This document shows positions 1,818 to 25,700 of a stretch of DNA of 64,000 bases, piece by piece; positions within the stretch are counted from its first letter, which is position 1, and each line of letters opens with the position of its first letter. The stretch covers positions 4,506-68,505 of the forward strand of contig JBAZBR010000003.1 in the NCBI GenBank assembly GCA_041671325.1, in the 5' to 3' direction. Origin of the DNA: Patescibacteria group bacterium. Lineage in GTDB: Bacteria; Patescibacteriota; Patescibacteriia; PEXW01. The notes under the pieces are model-generated. The model did no database searches and was not told the origin of the DNA. It was given only the letters and a program-made list of their open reading frames with translations. The position numbers were made by a program, and so were the translations under genes.

Positions 1818-4487
1818 ATGTATTTAGAAAAACTCGAAATCCAAGGTTTCAAATCCTTTGCCCATAAAACCACGTTGGAATTCCAGCGTGGCATTGCCGT
1901 GATTGTCGGGCCGAATGGCTCGGGCAAGTCTAATGTGGCCGATGCTGTCCGTTGGGTTTTGGGCGAACAAAGCTTGAAAATGATCCGCGGCAAGAAGAGC
2001 GAGGACGTGATTTTTGCCGGCAGCGACAAAAAGACCAGGCTTGGTATGGCTGAGGTGACTTTGACTTTGGATAACGCCGACCGCAAGGCGCCGATTGATT
2101 ATGACAAGGTCGTCATTGCCCGGCGCATATATAAGGACGGCACTTCCGAATACATCATGAATGGCTCGGCCACCCGTTTATCCGATATCCAGCTGCTTTT
2201 AGCCCGTTCCAACATTGGCCAAAGGACTTATTCGGTCATTGGCCAAGGCGCGGTGGACGCGGTGTTATTAGCCAGCCCGACCGAAAGGAAAGAATTTTTT
2301 GACGAAGCCGCTGGCGTTCGGCCTTTCCAAATGAAGCGCGAACAAGCCGAACACAAATTAGCTGCCACGCGGGAGAATTTAGGCCAAGCCCAGCTTTTGA
2401 TTGATGAAATTGCCCCGCGCTTGCGTTCGCTCACTCGCCAAGTTAAAAGATTGAGTGAACGGGAGGAAATCCAAAAGGGCTTGCGGGACTTGCAAGTCCA
2501 AGCATATGCCACCAAGCTGGTGGGTTTGCGGCAGGAACTGCATCTGGTTCGGGAAAAAGCTGGCGAGGCTGAAACAGAACAAGAAAGCGCTTTGGAATTT
2601 GTCAGTACCATCCAAGCCAAGCTTGACCAGGAAGAGCGCGGCTCCACCCGCCATGAAAGTTTCAACCAGTTGCAAAATGACTACCAGCAATTAGTTGAGA
2701 AAAGGAACCGTTTGCTTACCGAGCGGGCGGCTTTGGCCGGCAAAGTGGCGGCCAGTTTAGCCAAGGCTGGCCAATCCAATTTAGTCTGGCTGAACGCGCA
2801 AAAATCCGAATATGAATCCAAATTGCAAGCTGCTGAAGATGCGTACCGGCATTTGAAGGAAAAATTCGCCAAATTGAATGAGCAGGCAAAATCGGCCAAG
2901 ACCGAAGCTGAAGCTTTTGATAAGGAAATAAAAAATATTGAGAACCAATTATTAAAAGCTGAAGAATCCTTGAAAACCAAGACCACCCTGACTTTGCCGG
3001 ATTTAGCCAAAGATGTGGTGGAAGTGGTAACCCGCCACCAAAAATTTTTGCAAGCCATCAAGGCCGCAGTGACGCCGGAAGAATTTTCAGCTTTAAAAAA
3101 AGAAGCCCATCGCCTGGAAATTGAGGCGGATAAGTTTGTGCAAAAAATTAACGCCCAAGCGCCGAGTATTGATCCCACGGAATTAATCGCCCTGCAGCGG
3201 AGTTTGCACGAAAGCATGAAAGCCAAGGAAATCAAGACCAGGGCGGAAAATATCTTGTCAGCTGAAGTGAAAATTTTAAACGAGAAGCTATTCAATGAGG
3301 AGAAGGAAATCAGCCGCTTGAAAGAGGAATTGGGCAGAATCAGTAAAGATCTAAAACTTTCAGATTTAAAACCTAAGAATCCGGCTGAGGCTGAAGCGTT
3401 GGTAAACCAAGCCCAAGATGAAATGGATAAGCAGTTGGCAGAGCTGGAAGCAAAAATCCAAGAAGCCAAAACTGGCGTGGAAGAGTTTAATAAAAGTGAA
3501 CAAGGAAAAAGGGACAAATTATTCGCTTTGCAAAGGGAGGCTCGGGAAGCCCAAGATCAAGTTCGGGAAGCCGAAAGCCGTTTAGGGGACTTGCGGGTAG
3601 ATTTGGCGCGTTTGGAAACCAGGGAAGAAGATATTTTGCGCGAACTTCGGGCGGAATTGCCGGCAGAATACGTTGAAAAAGTGGAAAGCGCCAAAAAGAT
3701 TCCCGAACATACCAACTTGTCGAAGCTGGAAGAAGAAGTCGCCAAAACCAAGCATGCCTTGGAATTGATCGGCGGGATTGATGAGAACGCGGTTAAAGAA
3801 TACGAAGAAACCAAAACCCGTTATGATTTCTTGACCACCCAAGTGGCGGATTTGAATAAGGCCGCGGAAGATTTGGAAGTGGGCATCCAGAAATTGGAAA
3901 AAATAATCAAGGAAAAATTTGAAACATCTTTTTCCAAAGTTTCTTTGGAATTTTCCAAATATTTCAAGATTCTCTTTAATGGCGGCCATGCCAGCCTGGA
4001 ATTAGTCAAAGAAATAATTTTGCCGCCTGAAGCACAGGCAGATTTGGATGAGGATGAAGAAGATGGTGACGAGGCTGAAGAAATGGAATTGGAACCCAAG
4101 AAAATCAAAGGTGAAAAGGTGGTTACGGGCGTGGATATTTTTGCCACACCGCCAGGCAAGAAACTTAGAGGTATTGGCATGCTTTCCGGCGGTGAAAGAG
4201 CCTTGACTTCCATTGCCTTGATCTGTGCCATCTTAGCTTCTAACCCTTCACCCTTCGTGGTTTTGGATGAAGTTGACGCGGCCCTGGATGAATCCAATTC
4301 CATCCGCTTTGCCCAAATTTTGGAAAAACTTGCCCACCGCACCCAATTCATTACCATTTCCCACAACCGCGCCACCATGCAGCGCGCCATCCTTTTATAC
4401 GGCGTGACCATGGGTGATGACGGAGTCTCAAAGCTTTTGTCAGTCAAAATGGAGGACGTGGATAAAGTGGTTAATTCCAAGCATTAA
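1818..4487 (+). CDS. smc: SMC-like chromosome segregation ATPase (short, hinge not evident)
   Basis: N-terminal LEIQGFKSF plus Walker A GPNGSGKSN; C-terminal signature LSGGERALTSIAL and Walker B VVLDEVDAALDE; ~600 aa of K/E-rich coiled coil; only 889 aa. Confidence 0.8.
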   Translation: MYLEKLEIQGFKSFAHKTTLEFQRGIAVIVGPNGSGKSNVADAVRWVLGEQSLKMIRGKKSEDVIFAGSDKKTRLGMAEVTLTLDNADRKAPIDYDKVVIARRIYKDGTSEYIMNGSATRLSDIQLLLARSNIGQRTYSVIGQGAVDAVLLASPTERKEFFDEAAGVRPFQMKREQAEHKLAATRENLGQAQLLIDEIAPRLRSLTRQVKRLSEREEIQKGLRDLQVQAYATKLVGLRQELHLVREKAGEAETEQESALEFVSTIQAKLDQEERGSTRHESFNQLQNDYQQLVEKRNRLLTERAALAGKVAASLAKAGQSNLVWLNAQKSEYESKLQAAEDAYRHLKEKFAKLNEQAKSAKTEAEAFDKEIKNIENQLLKAEESLKTKTTLTLPDLAKDVVEVVTRHQKFLQAIKAAVTPEEFSALKKEAHRLEIEADKFVQKINAQAPSIDPTELIALQRSLHESMKAKEIKTRAENILSAEVKILNEKLFNEEKEISRLKEELGRISKDLKLSDLKPKNPAEAEALVNQAQDEMDKQLAELEAKIQEAKTGVEEFNKSEQGKRDKLFALQREAREAQDQVREAESRLGDLRVDLARLETREEDILRELRAELPAEYVEKVESAKKIPEHTNLSKLEEEVAKTKHALELIGGIDENAVKEYEETKTRYDFLTTQVADLNKAAEDLEVGIQKLEKIIKEKFETSFSKVSLEFSKYFKILFNGGHASLELVKEIILPPEAQADLDEDEEDGDEAEEMELEPKKIKGEKVVTGVDIFATPPGKKLRGIGMLSGGERALTSIALICAILASNPSPFVVLDEVDAALDESNSIRFAQILEKLAHRTQFITISHNRATMQRAILLYGVTMGDDGVSKLLSVKMEDVDKVVNSKH

Positions 4488-4940: not shown

Positions 4941-5384
4941 ATGGTCTCAATCAGATTAAAAAGAGTCGGGAAAAAAGGCAGCGCCACTTTCCGTTTTGTG
5001 GTGTCTGATAAAAGGAAGGACACCATTGGCCCGGCTTTGGAAATTTTGGGTTCTTATAACCCGCATGTTAATCCCCCGGCAATCCAGGTTAAAGCTGACC
5101 GGGTTCAATACTGGCTTTCCAAAGGTGCCCAGCCTTCGGCTTCAGTGCATAACCTTTTAGTTACGGCAGGCGCTTTAAAGGCTGAAAAAGTCATTGTGGC
5201 CAAGGCAAAAAAACCAAAGGAAGAAGTAAAACCAGAAGCTAAAGCAGCACCAAAAGCCGAATCTAAACCCGAGGTTAAACCTGAAGCAGCTAAGCCTGAG
5301 GTTAAAGCAGAGGTAAAAGTTGAAGATCCAGCTCCGCAGGAAAAGATTGAAGAGAAAAAAGCAGAAGAGCCAGTAAAAAGCTAA
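4941..5384 (+). CDS. rpsP: 30S ribosomal protein S16 with K/A/E/P-rich C-terminal extension
   Basis: MVSIRLKRVGKKGSATFRFVV ... YNPH ... QYWLSKGAQPS is canonical S16; ~60 aa low-complexity tail (KPEAKAAPKAESKPEVKPE...). Confidence 0.9.
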   Translation: MVSIRLKRVGKKGSATFRFVVSDKRKDTIGPALEILGSYNPHVNPPAIQVKADRVQYWLSKGAQPSASVHNLLVTAGALKAEKVIVAKAKKPKEEVKPEAKAAPKAESKPEVKPEAAKPEVKAEVKVEDPAPQEKIEEKKAEEPVKS

Positions 5385-5431: not shown

Positions 5432-5591
5432 GACAACCAGGCTTTGGCTTGCTATTTTTCCCATATCGCTAATGTACCTGTCGCTTCTGTAGTCAAAGAG
5501 GCTTTGGTACACGGCAAGCCAAACCGGTCCTACTAAGTCGAAAGGATTGTCGGTAACTGGCCAAAATTTTAACAATTAACGACAAACTGTT

Positions 5592-5948
5592 ATGGCAGAG
5601 AAATATCAAGATTCAGAGTTCGTCGAATATCTTGTCAAATCGATAGTCGACAACCCGAACGATGTAAAGGTCGAACGCACGGTCGATGAGATGGGCGTGC
5701 TGATTACTTTGCACGTGAACCCGTCCGACTTGGGCCAAGTCATTGGCCGACAAGGACAGACCGCCAAGAGCATCCGGACCCTTTTAAGAGTGGTGGGTGC
5801 CAAGAACCACGCTAGAGTGAACATGAAAATCTTCGAACCCGAAGGTTACAGGAAGTTTGATGGCGACAAAGGCGGCCAAAGAGGCGACAGACCAGCGTCT
5901 GCGCCAGCATCAGAAGATGCCAACTTGGCTGACGACTTAAAACTATAA
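5592..5948 (+). CDS. KH-domain RNA-binding protein (UPF0109/YlqC-like) with G/R/D-rich tail
   Basis: KH core VIGRQGQTAKSIRTLL; conserved position after rpsP. Confidence 0.75.
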   Translation: MAEKYQDSEFVEYLVKSIVDNPNDVKVERTVDEMGVLITLHVNPSDLGQVIGRQGQTAKSIRTLLRVVGAKNHARVNMKIFEPEGYRKFDGDKGGQRGDRPASAPASEDANLADDLKL

Positions 5949-5958
5949 TTTTAAAATC

Positions 5959-5989
5959 AAGAAAGGGAACCCTAGGGTTCCCTTTCTTT
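5959..5989 (+). terminator. rho-independent terminator
   Basis: perfect hairpin AAGAAAGGGAACC-CTA-GGGTTCCCTTTCTT followed by T-run. Confidence 0.65.
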
Positions 5990-6072
5990 GTATACCAAAA
6001 AAGCCCTTGCGACGGAGGATTTTTTTATCGTGAAGGAGAGTTCGAAAGGACTCTTTTTGTTTTAGTTGATTA

Positions 6073-6200
6073 TTTGTCATTCCGACCGAAGCGAACGAAA
6101 GTGAGCGTAGTGGAGGAATCTCGTTTGATTCAGACGAGATCCCCCGCCTGCCTTGCTAGTTCGGCGGGCAGGTCGGCAAGGCTCAGGATGACAAAAAATA
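6073..6200 (+). repeat. structured GC-rich repeat, copy A (TIR TTTGTCAT / ATGACAAA; core CCCGCCTGCC ... GGCGGGCAGGTCG)
   Basis: terminal inverted repeats plus internal GC palindromes; shares core with copies at 7148-7310 and 25611-25700. Confidence 0.5.
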
Positions 6201-6386
6201 TTTTCATATTGACAATATTTAACACTTAAATTAAATTAAGCGGAAGTTCTTTGATAACCGTCTACCTACGTTAGACAAGCTTAGTCGGGCAGGACTAGGC
6301 AAAACCGAAAACAACCTAAAACCACTAAAGGGTTTAGGGCTAAAGCCATAGCCGACGGTACTTAACCTAGGCGACTGGAGGATTTT

Positions 6387-6926
6387 ATGGATCTTCTTGA
6401 ACAACTTTTTGAACGTGCGCAAACTTCAGTAGTCGTGCGAATGCACATAACTAAAGAAAACAGTGGTTACTCGGTGCATATCATTATTTTTACTGGGGAG
6501 CGCGATTATTTTATTGCATGTTCGGCTAAATACCAAATGGAAGGACGACGTTGGTTGTCAAAGACTTCTGAGCTACAACGTTTTTCAATCGGTTCATACC
6601 CAGGTTGTGCCGAGTCCCAGAAAAGCCGTGATTTTCTTAGCAAACTGTTTGCAACGCATTTATGCTCGCTACGCGAGAATGTACAGTTCATTGCGACGCA
6701 CGAAGACTCAGGTGCGGATGCCGCTACGAGTCCCCAGATTCTTATATGCCTCACACACCTCGTAGCTTATTTGCAAGGCCAGGTCGGTATTAAGAAATAT
6801 GAGTCGCTCGATGGCCATTCTATTTATTACTGGGAGTCTATGTTGTGCGATCGCCTCATGGGGTTTATCGGCGAACAGATGGAACGTCAACGTCAAAGCG
6901 GCTTAGCTTTCTTGCGAGATCATTAA
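6387..6926 (+). CDS. hypothetical protein carried within the GC-rich insertion
   Basis: 179 aa ORF with GGAGG RBS 8 nt upstream; no family recognised; lies between repeat copies A and B. Confidence 0.4.
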   Translation: MDLLEQLFERAQTSVVVRMHITKENSGYSVHIIIFTGERDYFIACSAKYQMEGRRWLSKTSELQRFSIGSYPGCAESQKSRDFLSKLFATHLCSLRENVQFIATHEDSGADAATSPQILICLTHLVAYLQGQVGIKKYESLDGHSIYYWESMLCDRLMGFIGEQMERQRQSGLAFLRDH

Positions 6927-7147
6927 ATCTCTTCTTTCAATTTCACCGTCTGCTCCTGCCCCCCGCCAGCCCGACACGCTGTCGAGGCGAGCGGAAATTC
7001 GTCTGCGCAAGGCCGCAGATAAAGTAAATGTTAAAAGACAGTCCTGCCCGGCTGTCTTTTTTTATTCCATCAGGCATTTTAGCGAGGTCCAGCCTTCGCA
7101 GCCGCTTCGGCGGAGTAAGTCAGGCGGGCACGGTGGTTCTTCTTTTT

Positions 7148-7310
7148 CTGTCATTGCGAGCCCCGCACAGCGGGGCGTGGCAATCTTACTCGGACGTCAT
7201 TAAGAAAGATTGCTCCCGCCTGCCTTTGCCCTGCCTGCCTGTCGGTAGGCAGACGAAGTATGGCGGGCAGGTCGTCAGTGACCATGGGTACTTCCTCGCA
7301 ATGACACAAT
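7148..7310 (+). repeat. structured GC-rich repeat, copy B (12-bp TIR TGTCATTGCGAG / CTCGCAATGACA)
   Basis: perfect 12-bp terminal inverted repeat; internal GCAATCTT ... AAGATTGC and CCCGCCTGCC ... GGCGGGCAGGTCG palindromes; same orientation as copy A. Confidence 0.55.
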
Positions 7311-7477
7311 GGAACTTTTGTGCTAATTTATTTTCGTACCTACCTTGGTACATTTTCTTTCAACTTTTTCAAGGAGGTATCCTTGAAACGTAAATACGAT
7401 TTTTGCCATTGGCCGGAGGATGGCGGTTAGAGCGAACACCGTCGCCAATCGTCAAACCTTTGCTTTATGGCAAAAAG

Positions 7478-7510
7478 CAGGCCACCCTGAAAAGAGGTGG
7501 CCTTTATTTA
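7478..7510 (+). terminator. hairpin plus T-tract (AGGCCACC-CTGAAAAGA-GGTGGCCT TTATTT)
   Basis: perfect 8-bp stem followed by T-rich run. Confidence 0.45.
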
Positions 7511-7686
7511 CACAATCTGATAGTAGTTTATACTATAAACAAATCGTCCTTTTTAAACCTTTAGCTGAAAGGAGTCATTACAATGCAAGGAAAACATTTT
7601 GAACCCAGTGATGGAGGGTAAGGCAATGCGCAGAGAAAAAAAACTTCGCGGGGCCGGCGATAGTTGCCACCACAAAGGCGGCGGAA

Positions 7687-8010
7687 TTGATGGCTCGTTC
7701 AAGGGCGGCGGCACTGGCGAAAGACGTCGCCATTTTGGCGAAGGAGACGGGGGCTAGCATGCAAGACAAGACTCCTGCGACACAACGGTCGTTTTGGTAT
7801 CAGACCTGGATGGCAGAAGAATTCTTTCTGCCGGCTCTCGCGAGTGGTATCGCTTGGCTCATGTACTCCAATTGTGACGCTTTGTTCCCGTATCACCCAG
7901 CTACCAAATCCTTGATTAAAGCGATAGTTGTCGCGGCAGCAGTCTTGAGCTTTGTGCCTTTCGGGCTAAAATTGTACTTTAGGTTAAAGTCCCGAATTTT
8001 CCGAGGCTAA
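7687..8010 (+). CDS. hypothetical small membrane protein
   Basis: 107 aa; two predicted hydrophobic helices; GC-rich. Confidence 0.35.
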   Translation: MMARSRAAALAKDVAILAKETGASMQDKTPATQRSFWYQTWMAEEFFLPALASGIAWLMYSNCDALFPYHPATKSLIKAIVVAAAVLSFVPFGLKLYFRLKSRIFRG

Positions 8011-8157
8011 ATGAAGCTTCCGCGATGACTTAGCAAAAGAGGATGCTATGCGCGAAAACAACTTTCGTCATCGGGACAATGGCGAAGATGACGGATAAGC
8101 CAAGGGGCGACTTTCTTAAGTCGCCCCTATTTTTTTAATAAATGTTAAACTATATTC

Positions 8158-8802
8158 ATGCAATTCGATATTATTACAATCTTCCCCCAGGCTTTTGGTT
8201 ACTTGGAACAAAGCATAATTGGTCGGGCGGTTAAGCATGGCAAAATTAAAGTTAAAATCCATGATTTGCGTAAATGGACCATTGACAAACATAAGACCGT
8301 AGATGACCGGCCCTATGGCGGGGGTCCAGGCATGGTCATGAAAGTGGAGCCGCTTTTTAAGGCGCTGAAAGCCATAAAGAAAAAAAGAAAAGCCAAGGTT
8401 GTTTTATTTTCGGCCAAAGGTGAAAATTTTACCCAAGTCAGAGCTAAGTCTTGGAAAAATTTGGACCAAATAATTTTAATCCCCGGCCGTTATGAAGGTA
8501 TTGATGAGAGGATTTTAAAATGGGTGGATGAAGAAATTTCCATTGGCGATTATGTTTTAACCGGCGGGGAATTGCCGACCATGGTGGTAATTGATGCGAT
8601 TAGTCGTTTAATCCCGGGCGTGTTGGGCAAAGATGAATCCAGCCAAGATGAGTCGCACCAAACCCCTGGTTGGTTGGAATATCCGCATTACACCCGGCCA
8701 GAGAGTTTTAAAAAAATGAAAGTGCCAAAAGAACTTTTGAGCGGTGATCCTAAGAAAGTTACTGCCTGGCGGGCAAAACATGCAAAAATAAAGAAAATAT
8801 GA
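8158..8802 (+). CDS. trmD: tRNA (guanine37-N1)-methyltransferase
   Basis: MQFDIITIFP ... DRPYGGGPGMVMK ... GDYVLTGGELP are TrmD hallmarks. Confidence 0.9.
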   Translation: MQFDIITIFPQAFGYLEQSIIGRAVKHGKIKVKIHDLRKWTIDKHKTVDDRPYGGGPGMVMKVEPLFKALKAIKKKRKAKVVLFSAKGENFTQVRAKSWKNLDQIILIPGRYEGIDERILKWVDEEISIGDYVLTGGELPTMVVIDAISRLIPGVLGKDESSQDESHQTPGWLEYPHYTRPESFKKMKVPKELLSGDPKKVTAWRAKHAKIKKI

Positions 8803-11389: not shown

Positions 11390-12970
<1,581 letters not shown>

Positions 12971-13267: not shown

Positions 13268-13370
13268 ATAAGTTATTAATACTTGGTTTTTAAGGGCGAC
13301 TAGCTCCCCGTATCACTCCCTTCGGTCGGATACGGGGCAGTCAGATGGTTTGCGATAAGCCCCTGCGGTG

Positions 13371-13459
13371 GGCGACTAGCTCAGATGGTTAGAGCGTTCA
13401 CCCCGTACCAAAGGGGGCATGTAGCTCAGATGGTTAGAGCGTTCACCCCGTACCAAAGG
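13371..13459 (+). repeat. two tandem 44-nt copies of a truncated tRNA-Ile 5' half plus linker (..GTAGCTCAGATGGTTAGAGCG TTCACCCCGTACCAAAGGG)
   Basis: direct repeats immediately 5' of the intact tRNA-Ile; weaker degenerate copies at 13301-13370. Confidence 0.6.
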
Positions 13460-13536
13460 GGGCATGTAGCTCAGATGGTTAGAGCGCGTCACTGATAATG
13501 ACGAGGTCCCTGGTTCGACTCCAGGCATGCCCACCA
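13460..13536 (+). tRNA. tRNA-Ile (anticodon GAT)
   Basis: manual cloverleaf: acceptor GGGCATG/CATGCCC, anticodon loop CTGATAA, T-loop TTCGACT, encoded CCA. Confidence 0.85.
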
Positions 13537-13786
13537 TTGCCCCTTTTGGTACGGGGCGGAGCTGATAATGACCTGCCTGCGCGAAGCCGCTTCGGCAAAG
13601 GCAGGCGAGGTCTCAGGTTTCCGGCATAGCCGGACCCGGCTCTGCCGGGCGATTCCTGAGTCGCCCACCACGCGTCATCGCTTGCTTCACCTTCCGCATA
13701 ACCAAGGTTTTGGTTCTGCTCCAGGTTCCGCAAGCGTGCCGCTTTACCCATTTCATCAAAGATGAAATGGGGACCCCCTGGTTTAT

Positions 13787-13863
13787 GGGTTCGTAGCTCA
13801 GTTGGTTAGAGCGCCACATTGACATTGTGGAGGTCAGAGGTTCAACTCCTCTCGGACCCACCA
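13787..13863 (+). tRNA. tRNA-Val (anticodon GAC)
   Basis: acceptor GGGTTCG/CGGACCC, anticodon loop TTGACAT, T-loop TTCAACT, CCA. Confidence 0.85.
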
Positions 13864-14074
13864 GTTCGTTTCGTGCTTCGCCCTGCGTGAGCACGCTAAC
13901 GCTTGCTCACTCCGGACTCCGCACGAAGCCTCGCTTTCCCGACAAATCCGTACTCGCTTCGCTGCGTTCCTGATTTGTCGGGGTTTATTCCGCAAGTGTG
14001 CCGCTTTCCCCACGCGCCAGTTCCGCCGCGTGGGGCCCTCAATTTTGCAATTTTAAAACTCAGTTCACTTTGGG

Positions 14075-14149
14075 GCCGAGTTAGCTCAGTGGTAGAGCGC
14101 AGCCCTGAAGAGGCTGGCGTCGTCAGTTCGATTCTGACACTCGGCACCA
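14075..14149 (+). tRNA. tRNA-Phe (anticodon GAA)
   Basis: acceptor GCCGAGT/ACTCGGC, anticodon loop CTGAAGA, T-loop TTCGATT, CCA; flanked by inverted repeat CAGTTCACTTTGG / CCAAAGTGAACTG. Confidence 0.85.
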
Positions 14150-14192
14150 AAGTGAACTGAGAAGAGGGCTTTCAATTATTAAAAACTTCTAA

Positions 14193-14269
14193 CGGGGTGT
14201 AGTTCAGTTGGCTAGAACGCTCGCTTTGGGAGCGAGAGGTCCGCGGTTCGAGTCCGCGCACCCCGACCA
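14193..14269 (+). tRNA. tRNA-Pro (anticodon TGG)
   Basis: acceptor CGGGGTG/CACCCCG, anticodon loop TTTGGGA, T-loop TTCGAGT, CCA. Confidence 0.8.
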
Positions 14270-14520
14270 GCTCGTTTCACGCTGCGAGCTCTGTTTTGCC
14301 GTAAACGGCAAAAGCGCCGCTCTACGCGTGAAGCCTCGCTTTCCCCATTTCATCTTTGATGAAATGGGGACCCCCAAGTTGGTTTCCACAAGCACGCCGT
14401 TTTCCCCACGCGCCAGTTCCGCCGCGTGGGGCGAATTGATTTTGCATTAAAAATTTTGGGACCCCAGGAAAATTTAAACAAACAAAAAAGCCGTGCAATG
14501 AAGACGACTTTTTTAAATAA

Positions 14521-14736: not shown

Positions 14737-14853
14737 CTTGCAAAGATGTCAAGCCTTGATTTTGGATTGGGTATACCCTGCCTGATGGAACAAGGATAAA
14801 GTGAAATTACTCGCTTTAACCTTATGTCTCATATGATCGCCCTCTTAAAATAA

Positions 14854-15624
14854 ATACCTTCAGAAGCTAAGATCAGAAAAACTTTAAGGCAAATTATCTT
14901 CGGACACAATCTCTGCTGTCCTCATTGTCACTCCAGACAAGTTTATTCTTCAGAAGACCGTTATCGTTGTCGAAAATGTCGCAAGCCTTTTAGCCTATTA
15001 TCCAATACCTGGCTTAAAGACATGAAACTTTCCCTTAGAACCTTTTGGGCGCTATTATGGTGCTGGACTCAAAAAATACCCGTTTTACAGACTCAGAAGC
15101 TCTGTCATATCCAAGAAGAATCGGTTAGATATTGGTTTAGGCAATTTAGACTACATTTACCCCAATTTGAGCCAATTTTGAACGGTCATATCCAAATGGA
15201 CGAAGCCTACTTTAAAAATTTAGCCCTGCTTATGGCTAAACAGGAGAGTAGTCGAAACCTAGCCCATCAAGTCATCTTCAAGAAGTCCGTGGACAAACGC
15301 GATGCTACCGAATTCCTGTTCCAACACGTTGAGCCTAAAAGCTATTTGCAAACTGATGGCTCTGGTATCTATCAAAACATTAACCAATGGTGGCAGGTTA
15401 AGCACAAACAGGATATTCACAAGAGATGGGAATTTGAATTAACCAGTGAAATTGAAGGGATGTTTGGCAACTTACGGACTTTTATTAGAAGAATGTATCA
15501 CCATGCCACTTCGATTTACCTGCCAGAATACGTAAGTGAATTTTGCTTCAGATTTTCCTCACCTGAAATCTTCATTTCACCCAATAGTTACTTAGCTAAA
15601 ACCCTTGTCGCTTGTTCCAACTGA
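14854..15624 (+). mobile_element. IS1595-family (ISXO2-like) transposase gene; no ATG at the 5' end of the conserved N-terminus
   Basis: in-frame upstream translation gives zinc ribbon CCPHCHSRQ ... RYRCRKCRKPFS typical of IS1595 N-termini; DDE-like core QMDEAYF / QTDGSGIY / E in EIEGMFGNL; in-frame TAA at 14851-14853 and no ATG before annotated M at 15022. Confidence 0.65.
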
Positions 15625-15722
15625 TATGGATTACCCATTACGGTACCCTTGACAATTTGATAAAAATTTGCTAGATTAATCGGAAAACAAAAAACGAAGA
15701 AATTGAAAAGAAAGGAGGCTGT

Positions 15723-24420: not shown

Positions 24421-25610
24421 ATTCTCATGCCGAACCCCGCACCACAATGGATGCGAGGGCAAGTTTATTTCGGCATCTTAATGTTTAGAGATCCTGAATC
24501 GAGTTCAGGATGAGGTTTTTAATATAAGTTTGCCGCGTCGTCGCTTGGCTCCTCCTCGCTATGACATTTGCAATATTTAAAAAGAAGGCGAAATATTTTT
24601 CCGCCTCCATTGTGGAACTTCATGATATAGCTTTTGGACTTACCGGCAATCGGGACAACAATGGTCATTATCCAGATGTTTAATCCGCGTTGCACGCTGG
24701 CACTTCGCACACCGTTTCGCTAGGCCATTGAGCAGCAGGGAGAATTCATCCGCCAGTTCATTTGCTTCTAGCCATGGACTCGTGCCCGCATTCGGCTTTG
24801 GCGGTTCATTGCTGGTTGGTTGTCTGCTAAGATAGCCCAAGATTATGCCTCCTTTTTTGCAATGCTATTGCCAGGAATTCTTTCGGATCCATATTGGATT
24901 CTTCCGGTAATGGCTTGCCGTTTTGTGACATGTGGATTTTTTCGTCAGGCGCTTCGGGTACGAGAATCAACACATAATTTCGTCCGGTAGTCCGCTCGAA
25001 TATGCTGATTTCGTCGTTCAGGTTAGTTAAAGCCGATTCACATGCCGGGTCAAGGTGCCATATTCCCATTTTTAACCTCCTTTTTGGTTTATGCTTAATC
25101 CAGATTTTCTAAAAGGTTTTTGAAAAGAACGGCTTTTTCGAGCCTATAATACTATCCGCTATCAGTCAATTTGTTTAAACCGCCCTGTTAATTTTAGCTG
25201 GACTATTTATTTGTCTCCTCAAATAACGCCCAAATATCATCTCGGATGTTTTCAAACAAAGCCTCTGCTTCTTTTTTGTTTTTATCCCTTTCGGTTATTG
25301 ATAAAATGTAAGAGATCGTACCATGAACAGCATCGCCAATATTCATCCAACCATCACCGCTGCGCCAATTATTCAACCCGCTTTTTTTAAAAATTTCCAG
25401 TCTTTTTTAATCCCCCCCTTAGTTTTTTCGTCAACATCAGATTCATCAACAATAGAAATCCATGTTGTATATCTAGATTCGATTTCATTGGCAAATTTTT
25501 CTTCGGGTGACGAGTATACCTGTTCTTGTTCGCTTGGATTTTCCCGCATATGGTTAAATAATGTTAAGTTTGGAAAATTTTAAATAATATTCTTGTTGTA
25601 TTTGTTATTG

Positions 25611-25700
25611 CGATCCCGCCGTATGGCGGGATGACCTGCCCGCCGAACTCGCGCCGGCGAGGCAGGCGGGAGCAATCTTATACGTCTTTTCATTCTGCCG
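25611..25700 (-). repeat. third copy of the structured GC-rich repeat (inverse orientation)
   Basis: GGCAGGCGGGAGCAATCTTA is the reverse complement of AAGATTGCTCCCGCCTGCC in copy B; plus GCGATCCCGCC-GTAT-GGCGGGAT hairpin. Confidence 0.5.

Follow-up and report, generated by a model that had tools for sequence, protein, structure and literature searches.

Among described bacterial repeats, the closest counterparts of the elements reported here are the REPINs, which are doublets of REP sequences that form hairpins and are mobilised by RAYT transposases (Bertels & Rainey 2011, PMC3116915), and the Rickettsia palindromic elements (RPEs; reviewed in PMC10969869). Repeats of this already known REP/REPIN/RPE-like kind are present in a 64,000-nt stretch of a Patescibacteria (Parcubacteria-like) genome (hereafter the window), where they occupy part of the spacer between khpA and trmD together with an orphan open reading frame of 179 aa (ORF179). 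A name for this particular family was found neither in Rfam, which gave no match at gathering score and only chance-level matches at E up to 5, nor in the full-text literature, where neither the repeat sequences nor MITEs or palindromic repeats in CPR/Patescibacteria led to anything relevant. The khpA-trmD gap is an ordinary variable spacer, neither one transposon nor a replaced rimM, and, with a probability put at about 60%, it is best explained as a fast-turning-over spacer in which REPIN/RPE-like selfish hairpin repeats are combined with an independently gained orphan gene.

The khpA-trmD spacer

The genes at the locus follow the order SMC (1818-4487), a 95-aa ORF, rpsP, khpA, a 2.2-kb spacer, trmD and an MFS transporter, and the assignments of rpsP, khpA (the KH gene) and trmD made in an earlier note on this DNA, drawn up from the sequence without database searches, agree with Pfam/NCBIfam (Table 1). 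The same note had described a GC-rich segment of ~1.4 kb, whereas the spacer extends over 5949-8157 (2209 bp). The claim of high GC is weak, with 47.1% GC for 6000-7420 against 43.7% for the window and only 45% for ORF179, and the surplus sits in the repeats (54-64%) and in positions 6927-7148 (54.5%). On its left the variable spacer has a conserved edge made of two predicted hairpins directly 3' of khpA, both being common to the relative L203 (L203 1-30 at 100% and 98-156 at 82%). The right edge of the insertion is formed by a predicted structured, non-coding block that is resident and lies outside the repeats, aligning to L203 215-425 and L204 609-815 with eight compensated pairs. The only mobile-element gene in the Pfam annotation of the 64-kb window is an IS1595-family DDE fragment (15178-15624), the ends of which are unrelated to the repeats.

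The segment had also been placed where rimM would be. RimM is indeed absent from the window, but the placement is misleading, as RimM is likewise absent from the khpA-trmD position of every sampled Patescibacteria locus, and in about two thirds of these loci khpA ends <300 bp before trmD. RimM was found in only 10 loci, none of them labelled Patescibacteria (the labels being Acidobacteria, Clostridia or Endomicrobiaceae), with its identity confirmed by Pfam on one example. As no sampled Patescibacteria locus has a rimM between khpA and trmD, nothing was displaced by the segment, and a replacement of rimM is not supported.

Table 1. Coordinates of genes, repeats and predicted signals in the window
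Feature	Position	Strand	Description
rpsP	4941-5384		Pfam/NCBIfam
khpA	5592-5948		Pfam/NCBIfam
Two terminator-like hairpins	5959-6058	+	3' of khpA; 5959-5988 a perfect 15+15 palindrome; 6033-6058
Repeat A	6073-6196	+	Head-outward inverted doublet, 124 bp; TTTGTCAT/ATGACAAA at its bounds
Promoter-like site	6209-6237	+	TTGACA-17-TAAATT upstream of ORF179; 10/12 matches, consensus match only
Putative Shine-Dalgarno	~6377-6382		GGAGGA, a few nt upstream of the ORF179 ATG
ORF179	6387-6926	+	179-aa orphan ORF
Intrinsic-terminator-like hairpin	7033-7060	+	With T-run, 3' of ORF179
Decayed unit D	~7075-7141	+	Half of the nested-hairpin motif (GTCAGGCGGG); partly complementary to 7202-7226
Repeat B	7149-7306	+	Head-outward inverted doublet of two TGC-type units, 158 bp
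Non-coding conserved block	7307-7515	+	Two predicted hairpins and a terminator at 7479-7503
trmD	8158-8802		Pfam/NCBIfam
Repeat cluster E	24424-24566	.	Three degenerate units of GCC-, CCT- and TGC-type (relaxed scan)
Repeat C	25603-25679	+	Single TGC-type unit, TGTTATTGCGA...GCAATCTT

Anatomy of the repeats

The basic unit of the family has the form (T)GTCAT-NNN-GAG, loop, N'N'N'-ATC(T/C), and makes a hairpin of 25-105 bp. In repeat A, a TCC-type left unit (GTCAT...ATC core at 6076-6120) is paired with a CCT-type right unit, while repeat B has a left-unit core at 7150-7185 and a right-unit core at 7208-7305. Each doublet has one unit, the right-hand one in both A and B, with a loop that contains a second hairpin (CCCGCCTGCC...GGCGGGCAGGTC). 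This nested hairpin, which in C lies in the sole unit, is what had been noted as a conserved palindromic core. It is present in all three repeats as CCCGCCTGCC...GGCGGGCAGG, located at 6143-6152 and 6163-6172 in A and at 7215-7224 and 7262-7271 in B, where the loop of the nested hairpin is 37 nt long. When the core pattern was searched with a gap of 4-34 nt, a range outside which the loop of B falls, the window had two matches and 100 shuffles had none. In C, two hairpins lie within the loop, and the shared CCTGCCCGCC...GGCAGGCGGG module makes up one of them.

Terminal inverted repeats, reported earlier for both elements flanking ORF179, are present at the bounds of A (Table 1) and, as a perfect 12-nt pair, at the ends of B (TGTCATTGCGAG/CTCGCAATGACA); the third copy previously located near 25611-25700 corresponds to C. 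The repeats themselves are real, as first described, but not as two same-orientation copies of one 130-160 bp element: the alignment of A with B has a mean column identity of 57%, with only modules of 8-13 nt in common, and judged by this comparison A and B are different members of a family. All three repeats are predicted to fold far more stably than their shuffles, with energies of -83.1 kcal/mol for B (z -6.3), -53.5 kcal/mol for A (z -4.7) and about -43 to -45 kcal/mol for C (z about -3.9 to -5). No T-run follows A, B or C. Target-site duplications were not visible, the flanks of A, B and the elements in L058, L203 and L204 showing no direct repeat.

The window contains at least four repeat clusters, all of which are intergenic and located directly past the stop codon or terminator of a gene. 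C lies 36 nt beyond the stop codon of a minus-strand glyoxalase-family gene and cluster E starts 4 nt downstream of the stop codon of a SpoU methylase gene. Cluster E and the decayed unit D, to which the relaxed scan also pointed, had both been missed in the earlier note.

The unit family in metagenomes and viral contigs

Members of the family have a very wide distribution in metagenomic DNA and in contigs of viruses: the TGC unit is present in at least 120 IMG/VR viral-contig stretches and the nested hairpin in at least 120 JGI metagenome stretches. The closure of GTCAT-NNN-GA within 150 nt by its cognate N'N'N'-ATC was determined across 2.07 Mb of fetched loci. The cognate triplet followed in 48 of 57 TGC cases (GCA), 20 of 25 TCT cases (AGA), 14 of 22 CCT cases (AGG), 9 of 15 CCC cases (GGG) and 6 of 8 TCC cases (GGA), while non-cognate closures were near zero. 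Because the closing triplet can be told almost perfectly from the left one, the hairpin is the conserved feature; a stem pair that was not forced by the search also has double changes, indicating covariation, and the GTCAT head and ATC tail are invariant in 21 aligned 32-nt units. The nested hairpin has two non-Watson-Crick positions, and a tabulation of their bases gave no information, the sequences having been chosen by the very pattern in question.

Units that lie close together favor the head-outward (+-) arrangement (57 of 97 pairs, with 17, 12 and 11 in the other arrangements), and 27 of these 57 doublets mix two stem subfamilies. Identical variants of the module plus its loop were found within unrelated carrier hairpins, and the nested module thus moves or recombines independently of its carrier. 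In the viral contigs 63% of units are intergenic, compared with ~15% of the sequence, and in the first locus set the intergenic share is 82%. No protein family recurrently adjoins the module or the units, the top clusters being relatives from the same locus or coding coincidences. The repeat anatomy, stem covariation, wide distribution, intergenic enrichment and doublet preference are direct observations.

Turnover of the spacer in relatives

Relatives from the clade of the window were recovered through their TrmD homologues, which have 85% identity to the TrmD of the window in L203 and L204, 76% in L003 and 72% in L206 and L207; L003, a Candidatus Parcubacteria MAG, is the closest species-level genome. 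Within this clade the khpA-trmD spacer is hypervariable, with lengths of 486 bp (L003), 574 bp (L205), ~860 bp (L204), ~915 bp (L207), ~1030 bp (L206) and 2209 bp (the window), and relatives also have large unrelated genes between rpsP and khpA. The spacer of L003 is unrelated to that of the window and offers no junction information. The matches of L203 to the window cover the khpA terminator (5958-5988) and 6005-6063, resume directly with 7291-7430 and include trmD. L203 is thus without 6064-7202, a stretch with repeat A, the cassette of ORF179, unit D and the left-hand unit of B. Relative to close relatives the segment is thus an insertion, as had been suggested, and its absence from the relatives and the abundance of the repeats elsewhere are both in keeping with that suggestion. 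The exact insertion junctions, and with them any target-site duplication relative to L203, are not definable because the sequence has diverged at the left junction, while the right one lies inside a unit.

Where the window has the right unit of B, one TGC unit of 41 bp is kept in L203 (174-214), its 21-nt loop being a different one, and since this unit is there without the cassette, the right unit of B is resident and pre-dates the cargo. Repeat A is absent from L203 and L204. The latter has a CCT/TCT doublet at the place of B and, at a greater distance upstream, another ORF that belongs to no family. In L206 and L207 the doublets immediately precede trmD, and L003 and L205 have no units. Given these differences in presence and type, units come, go and switch subfamily at orthologous spacers. 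Three relatives nonetheless retain a unit at the position of B, followed after 17 nt by a -10-like hexamer (ATGACA-17 nt-TAATTT/TAAAAT), which hints at a local function rather than pure selfishness, and donation of a -35 box by the unit end at 7301-7329 is possible at this one place. As general -35 donors the unit ends (ATGACA) were rejected, -10 hexamers not being enriched at 16-18 nt from the ends of 333 units.

Units also sit inside conserved genes. The trmD of another Patescibacterium, L058, has a 129-bp (43-codon) TGC doublet in frame within a loop, where the TrmD of the window and others have nothing, and the trmD of L026 has a unit in a second loop. Subfamily turnover and in-frame insertion were observed directly, as were the lack of the segment in relatives and the status of ORF179 as an orphan.

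The orphan ORF

The orphan ORF noted earlier is present at 6387-6926 and has no homologue but itself among 5.8 billion clusters, none in an exhaustive HMMER search of 1.84 billion representative proteins, and no match in Pfam, NCBIfam, PHROGs, PADLOC or PDB sequences. A single-sequence AF2 model reached a pLDDT of 45.9, too poor for a fold search. The codon score of ORF179 (0.029) is 2.6 SD below the mean of host genes (0.276 +/- 0.095) and falls inside the range of wrong-frame ORFs, while the chance of a 179-codon open frame within 2 kb is, by our own estimate, roughly 0.01, and the Shine-Dalgarno, promoter-like and terminator-like signals of Table 1 likewise speak for a gene. ORF179 is probably a real, recently acquired orphan gene, and it may be one without expression. 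It is absent from all six relatives (0/6), making a gain in the lineage of the window the parsimonious direction.

A model for the spacer

In the preferred explanation, a spacer that turns over quickly houses two unrelated things, selfish hairpin repeats and an orphan gene that was gained independently of them. The units would spread and be replaced in the form of single-stranded hairpins on which an enzyme acts in trans from a gene located elsewhere, one that would recognise the invariant head beside a variable stem on ssDNA, as RAYTs do with REPs or as in IS200/IS605; the lack of target-site duplications fits such a single-stranded, RAYT-type mechanism. Counting against this explanation, no mobilising enzyme, including RAYT Y1/HUH, is present in the Pfam annotation of the 64-kb window, and no protein recurs beside the units. 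Units usually stand as head-outward inverted doublets and their own loops accept further hairpins; the sites at which they are mostly tolerated are those directly behind the 3' ends of genes and the variable loops of proteins. A recent burst in this genome is disfavoured because the copies in the window have diverged from each other. The orphan cassette, putatively composed of the promoter-like site, the Shine-Dalgarno, ORF179 and the terminator, would have been gained after the split from the relatives with 85% TrmD identity, and its entry may have been aided by illegitimate or homologous recombination at the repeats, letting foreign DNA in. What had been offered as a MITE-like element, a composite mobile element or a family of structured RNAs is accordingly retained as a MITE/REP-like structured family, but neither as a composite element nor as a dedicated structured RNA.

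Alternative explanations

A shared host function could instead explain why the units occur across phyla, and the hairpins might be immobile and kept by the host at gene 3' ends to stabilise mRNA, attenuate transcription, bind protein or donate promoters. This is unlikely overall, though it deserves some weight, as all four clusters in the window lie just beyond a stop codon or terminator, one position has kept a unit in three relatives with the promoter-like spacing given above, and as RNA the GTCAT strand folds more stably in 64 of 83 units (vs 18; p = 2e-8), having twice as many G-U pairs. Part of that stability is due to the GCGAAGC-type mini-hairpin that many units contain. The orientation of units relative to genes is however unbiased in the viral contigs (50:46 overall; 39:38 for solitary units) and was counted as unbiased in the other loci (27:18), as was that of the nested hairpin, and a strand-specific RNA role is consequently not supported; the missing T-runs, the unenriched -10 boxes, the units in frame within coding regions and the swapping of subfamilies at an orthologous site likewise speak against host function. 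A dedicated structured RNA is not supported, there being neither an Rfam match nor an orientation bias. That A and B are instead the ends of one composite or cassette-like mobile block with ORF179 as its cargo is very improbable. The two are alike in their left-to-right architecture and bracket ORF179, and the stretch missing from L203 begins ~10 nt before A and ends within B, but A and B belong to different unit subfamilies with the low identity noted above, the right unit of B is resident in L203 without the cassette, no transposase is carried by or flanks either repeat, and the flanks show no target-site duplication. The cassette is also without a second copy, given that ORF179 has no homologue anywhere, and in ~3 Mb of fetched loci the inverted unit pairs separated by 0.6-3.5 kb enclose no recurrent ORF or other cargo.

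A related proposal treats the units as attC-like folded recombination sites at which a recombinase inserts orphan cassettes, with the spacer as a hotspot of capture. Imperfect palindromes with strand asymmetry do adjoin orphan ORFs, and lineage-specific ORFs without a family, none of them with a Pfam match, occupy the operon spacers of relatives (ORF179 in the window, 3-314 in L204, 122 aa in L205, 140 and 225 aa in L206, and 312 aa in L003). Such a system is nevertheless improbable here, as the Pfam annotation of the 64-kb window includes no integrase or recombinase, the cargo genes of relatives are at differing positions in the spacer, cargo ORFs occur in L003 and L205 in the absence of any unit, the majority of units elsewhere have no orphan ORF beside them, and the units apparently lack the R/L boxes typical of attC. 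Somewhat less far-fetched, if still doubtful, is the idea that the units and the CCCGCCTGCC...GGCGGGCAGGTC module together make up a set of cosmopolitan hairpins that insert into one another's loops, with their clusters acting as hotspots of orphan-gene capture; insertion may then proceed preferentially into the loops or tips of existing hairpins by a single-strand mechanism, and the hairpins may be carried between phyla by phages. No description of a mutually loop-inserting hairpin system was found in the literature. An assembly chimera or chance similarity can be dismissed for practical purposes. The source is a metagenome-assembled genome and the Logan contig breaks at 6155 and 7115, near the repeats, but three independent assemblies are 100% identical over the region, an artefact being excluded by the identity of the window to an ENA contig over 12,002 nt and to the Logan contig over 961 nt, and chance similarity is opposed by the absence of the core pattern from 100 shuffles.

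Implications for annotation

Under the preferred explanation little changes for the khpA-trmD locus itself, where no housekeeping gene was displaced. The units have wider consequences, given how frequent they are in metagenomic and viral sequence. They occur in frame within real genes and generate spurious ORFs, including a 121-aa ORF at 7028-7393 and a 44-aa gene called inside B on the ENA contig; they may also break assemblies. Because the family is very common, has no name that could be found and confuses gene calling, it merits a proper description, and a description of the family together with its mobilising enzyme would aid the annotation of Patescibacteria and other uncultured lineages.

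Comparison with known systems

Like a composite transposon or an integron cassette array, the locus has a gene bracketed by repeated structured elements, but it differs from both in that the window encodes no transposase or integrase that could serve the repeats, the flanks are unlike each other, the cargo is unseen elsewhere and the right-hand unit is older. With bacterial MITEs and BIME-type mosaic repeats the family shares small, non-coding, structured and multi-copy elements with terminal inverted repeats and a modular mosaic composition. Unlike MITEs, it shows no target-site duplication and, in the ~3 Mb of fetched loci, no parent IS with matching ends, those of the IS1595 fragment being unrelated, and, unlike in MITEs and BIMEs, the inverted ends are here the heads of two hairpin units.

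The likeness to RPEs (PMC10969869) lies in palindromes of ~100-150 bp that stand in frame in conserved genes of a reduced-genome bacterium, here in the trmD of L058; the RPE-like in-frame cases, those of L058 and L026, are outside the window, the sequence family and host phylum are unrelated to those of RPEs, and most copies are here intergenic. Compared with REPINs (PMC3116915), the head is (T)GTCAT rather than GTAG-like, nearly half of the doublets (27/57) combine two stem subfamilies, the loops hold nested hairpins, the family extends across many environments and viral contigs rather than one genome, and the 64-kb window has no RAYT. The shared features are nonetheless many: as in REPINs, the units are short, extragenic palindromes with an invariant head beside a stem with compensatory changes, inverted doublets with a spacer are over-represented and should, by prediction, fold into long hairpins as ssDNA or mRNA, and singlets occur as apparent remnants.

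Conserved elements and insertions in the operon spacers

Within the clade of the window, the spacers of the rpsP-khpA-trmD operon are insertion hotspots, with large unrelated genes occurring inside the operon in the relatives L003, L004, L006 and L206 (coordinates in the table). Some products of these genes, including those of 563 and 635 aa, are predicted to be secreted, and the two genes that were scanned, from L003 (312 aa) and L206 (225 aa), had no Pfam match. The non-coding leader of khpA (window 5495-5591) has about 81% identity to its L003 counterpart, equal to the conservation of the coding region, and may have a regulatory role.

Downstream of repeat B, a comparison of three genomes revealed a ~200-nt non-coding block (window 7307-7515) with counterparts in the two relatives with 85% TrmD identity, L203 (215-425) and L204 (609-815). 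The block contains two hairpins and a bidirectional terminator, has compensatory changes at eight pairs compared with L203 and L204, and may be a small RNA or leader. Upstream of it, all three genomes possess ATGACA, which closes a repeat unit and is followed after 17 nt by TAATTT or TAAAAT.

Ahead of trmD, a small ORF (window 7599-7757; possible start, 7626) encodes a Gly/His-rich peptide (...GAGDSCHHKGGGIDGSFKGGGTGERRRHFGEGDGG) with no match in Pfam or PHROGs that is also kept in L204 (911-1063) and is more weakly conserved in L206 and L207 (72% TrmD identity). ORF107 (window 7687-8010) overlaps this ORF in a different frame and, because L204 lacks a counterpart of the part at window 7770-8060, could be spurious or lineage-specific.

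Features of the window and of the operon in relatives
Feature	Locus	Positions
Hairpins in conserved non-coding block	Window	7336-7351; 7367-7388
Bidirectional terminator in the same block	Window	7479-7503
IS1595-family DDE transposase (PF12762) fragment, 148 aa	Window	15178-15624 (remnant about 14850-15625)
Large operon-internal gene	L003	7962-8900
Large operon-internal genes	L004	5596-7503; 8000-9991
Large operon-internal gene	L006	7191-8882
Large operon-internal gene	L206	2543-3220

Repeat units beyond the spacer

A SpoU methylase gene is followed, beginning 4 nt past its stop codon, by a fourth cluster of the hairpin repeat family, with three degenerate units (window 24424-24566); the earlier note had not named this cluster among the repeat copies. 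The ends of the IS1595-family remnant show no relation to the hairpin repeats.

The 16S gene (window 11390-12970) is followed by genes for tRNA-Ile, Val, Phe and Pro, and Rfam reported no 23S gene across the whole window. In a relaxed scan, the 16S 5' end (11404-11422; GATCCTGGCTCAGGATGAA) matched a CCT-type unit with one mismatch, probably by coincidence. Immediately 5' of tRNA-Ile, a 45-nt tRNA 5' half is present in three tandem copies (13370-13504), and repeated blocks bearing perfect 27-nt inverted repeats (13726-14432) occur between these four tRNA genes.

In Patescibacteria, TrmD has two variable loops that tolerate repeat-unit insertions; examples from genomes other than that of the window are an in-frame insertion of 129 bp (43 codons) at L058 867-995 and an in-frame unit at about L026 2322-2352. 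Seven TGC-type units are present in a 6.6-kb predicted viral contig from IMG/VR (L238), and the frequent occurrence of units across IMG/VR in general suggests that they have been moved between hosts by phages or prophages.
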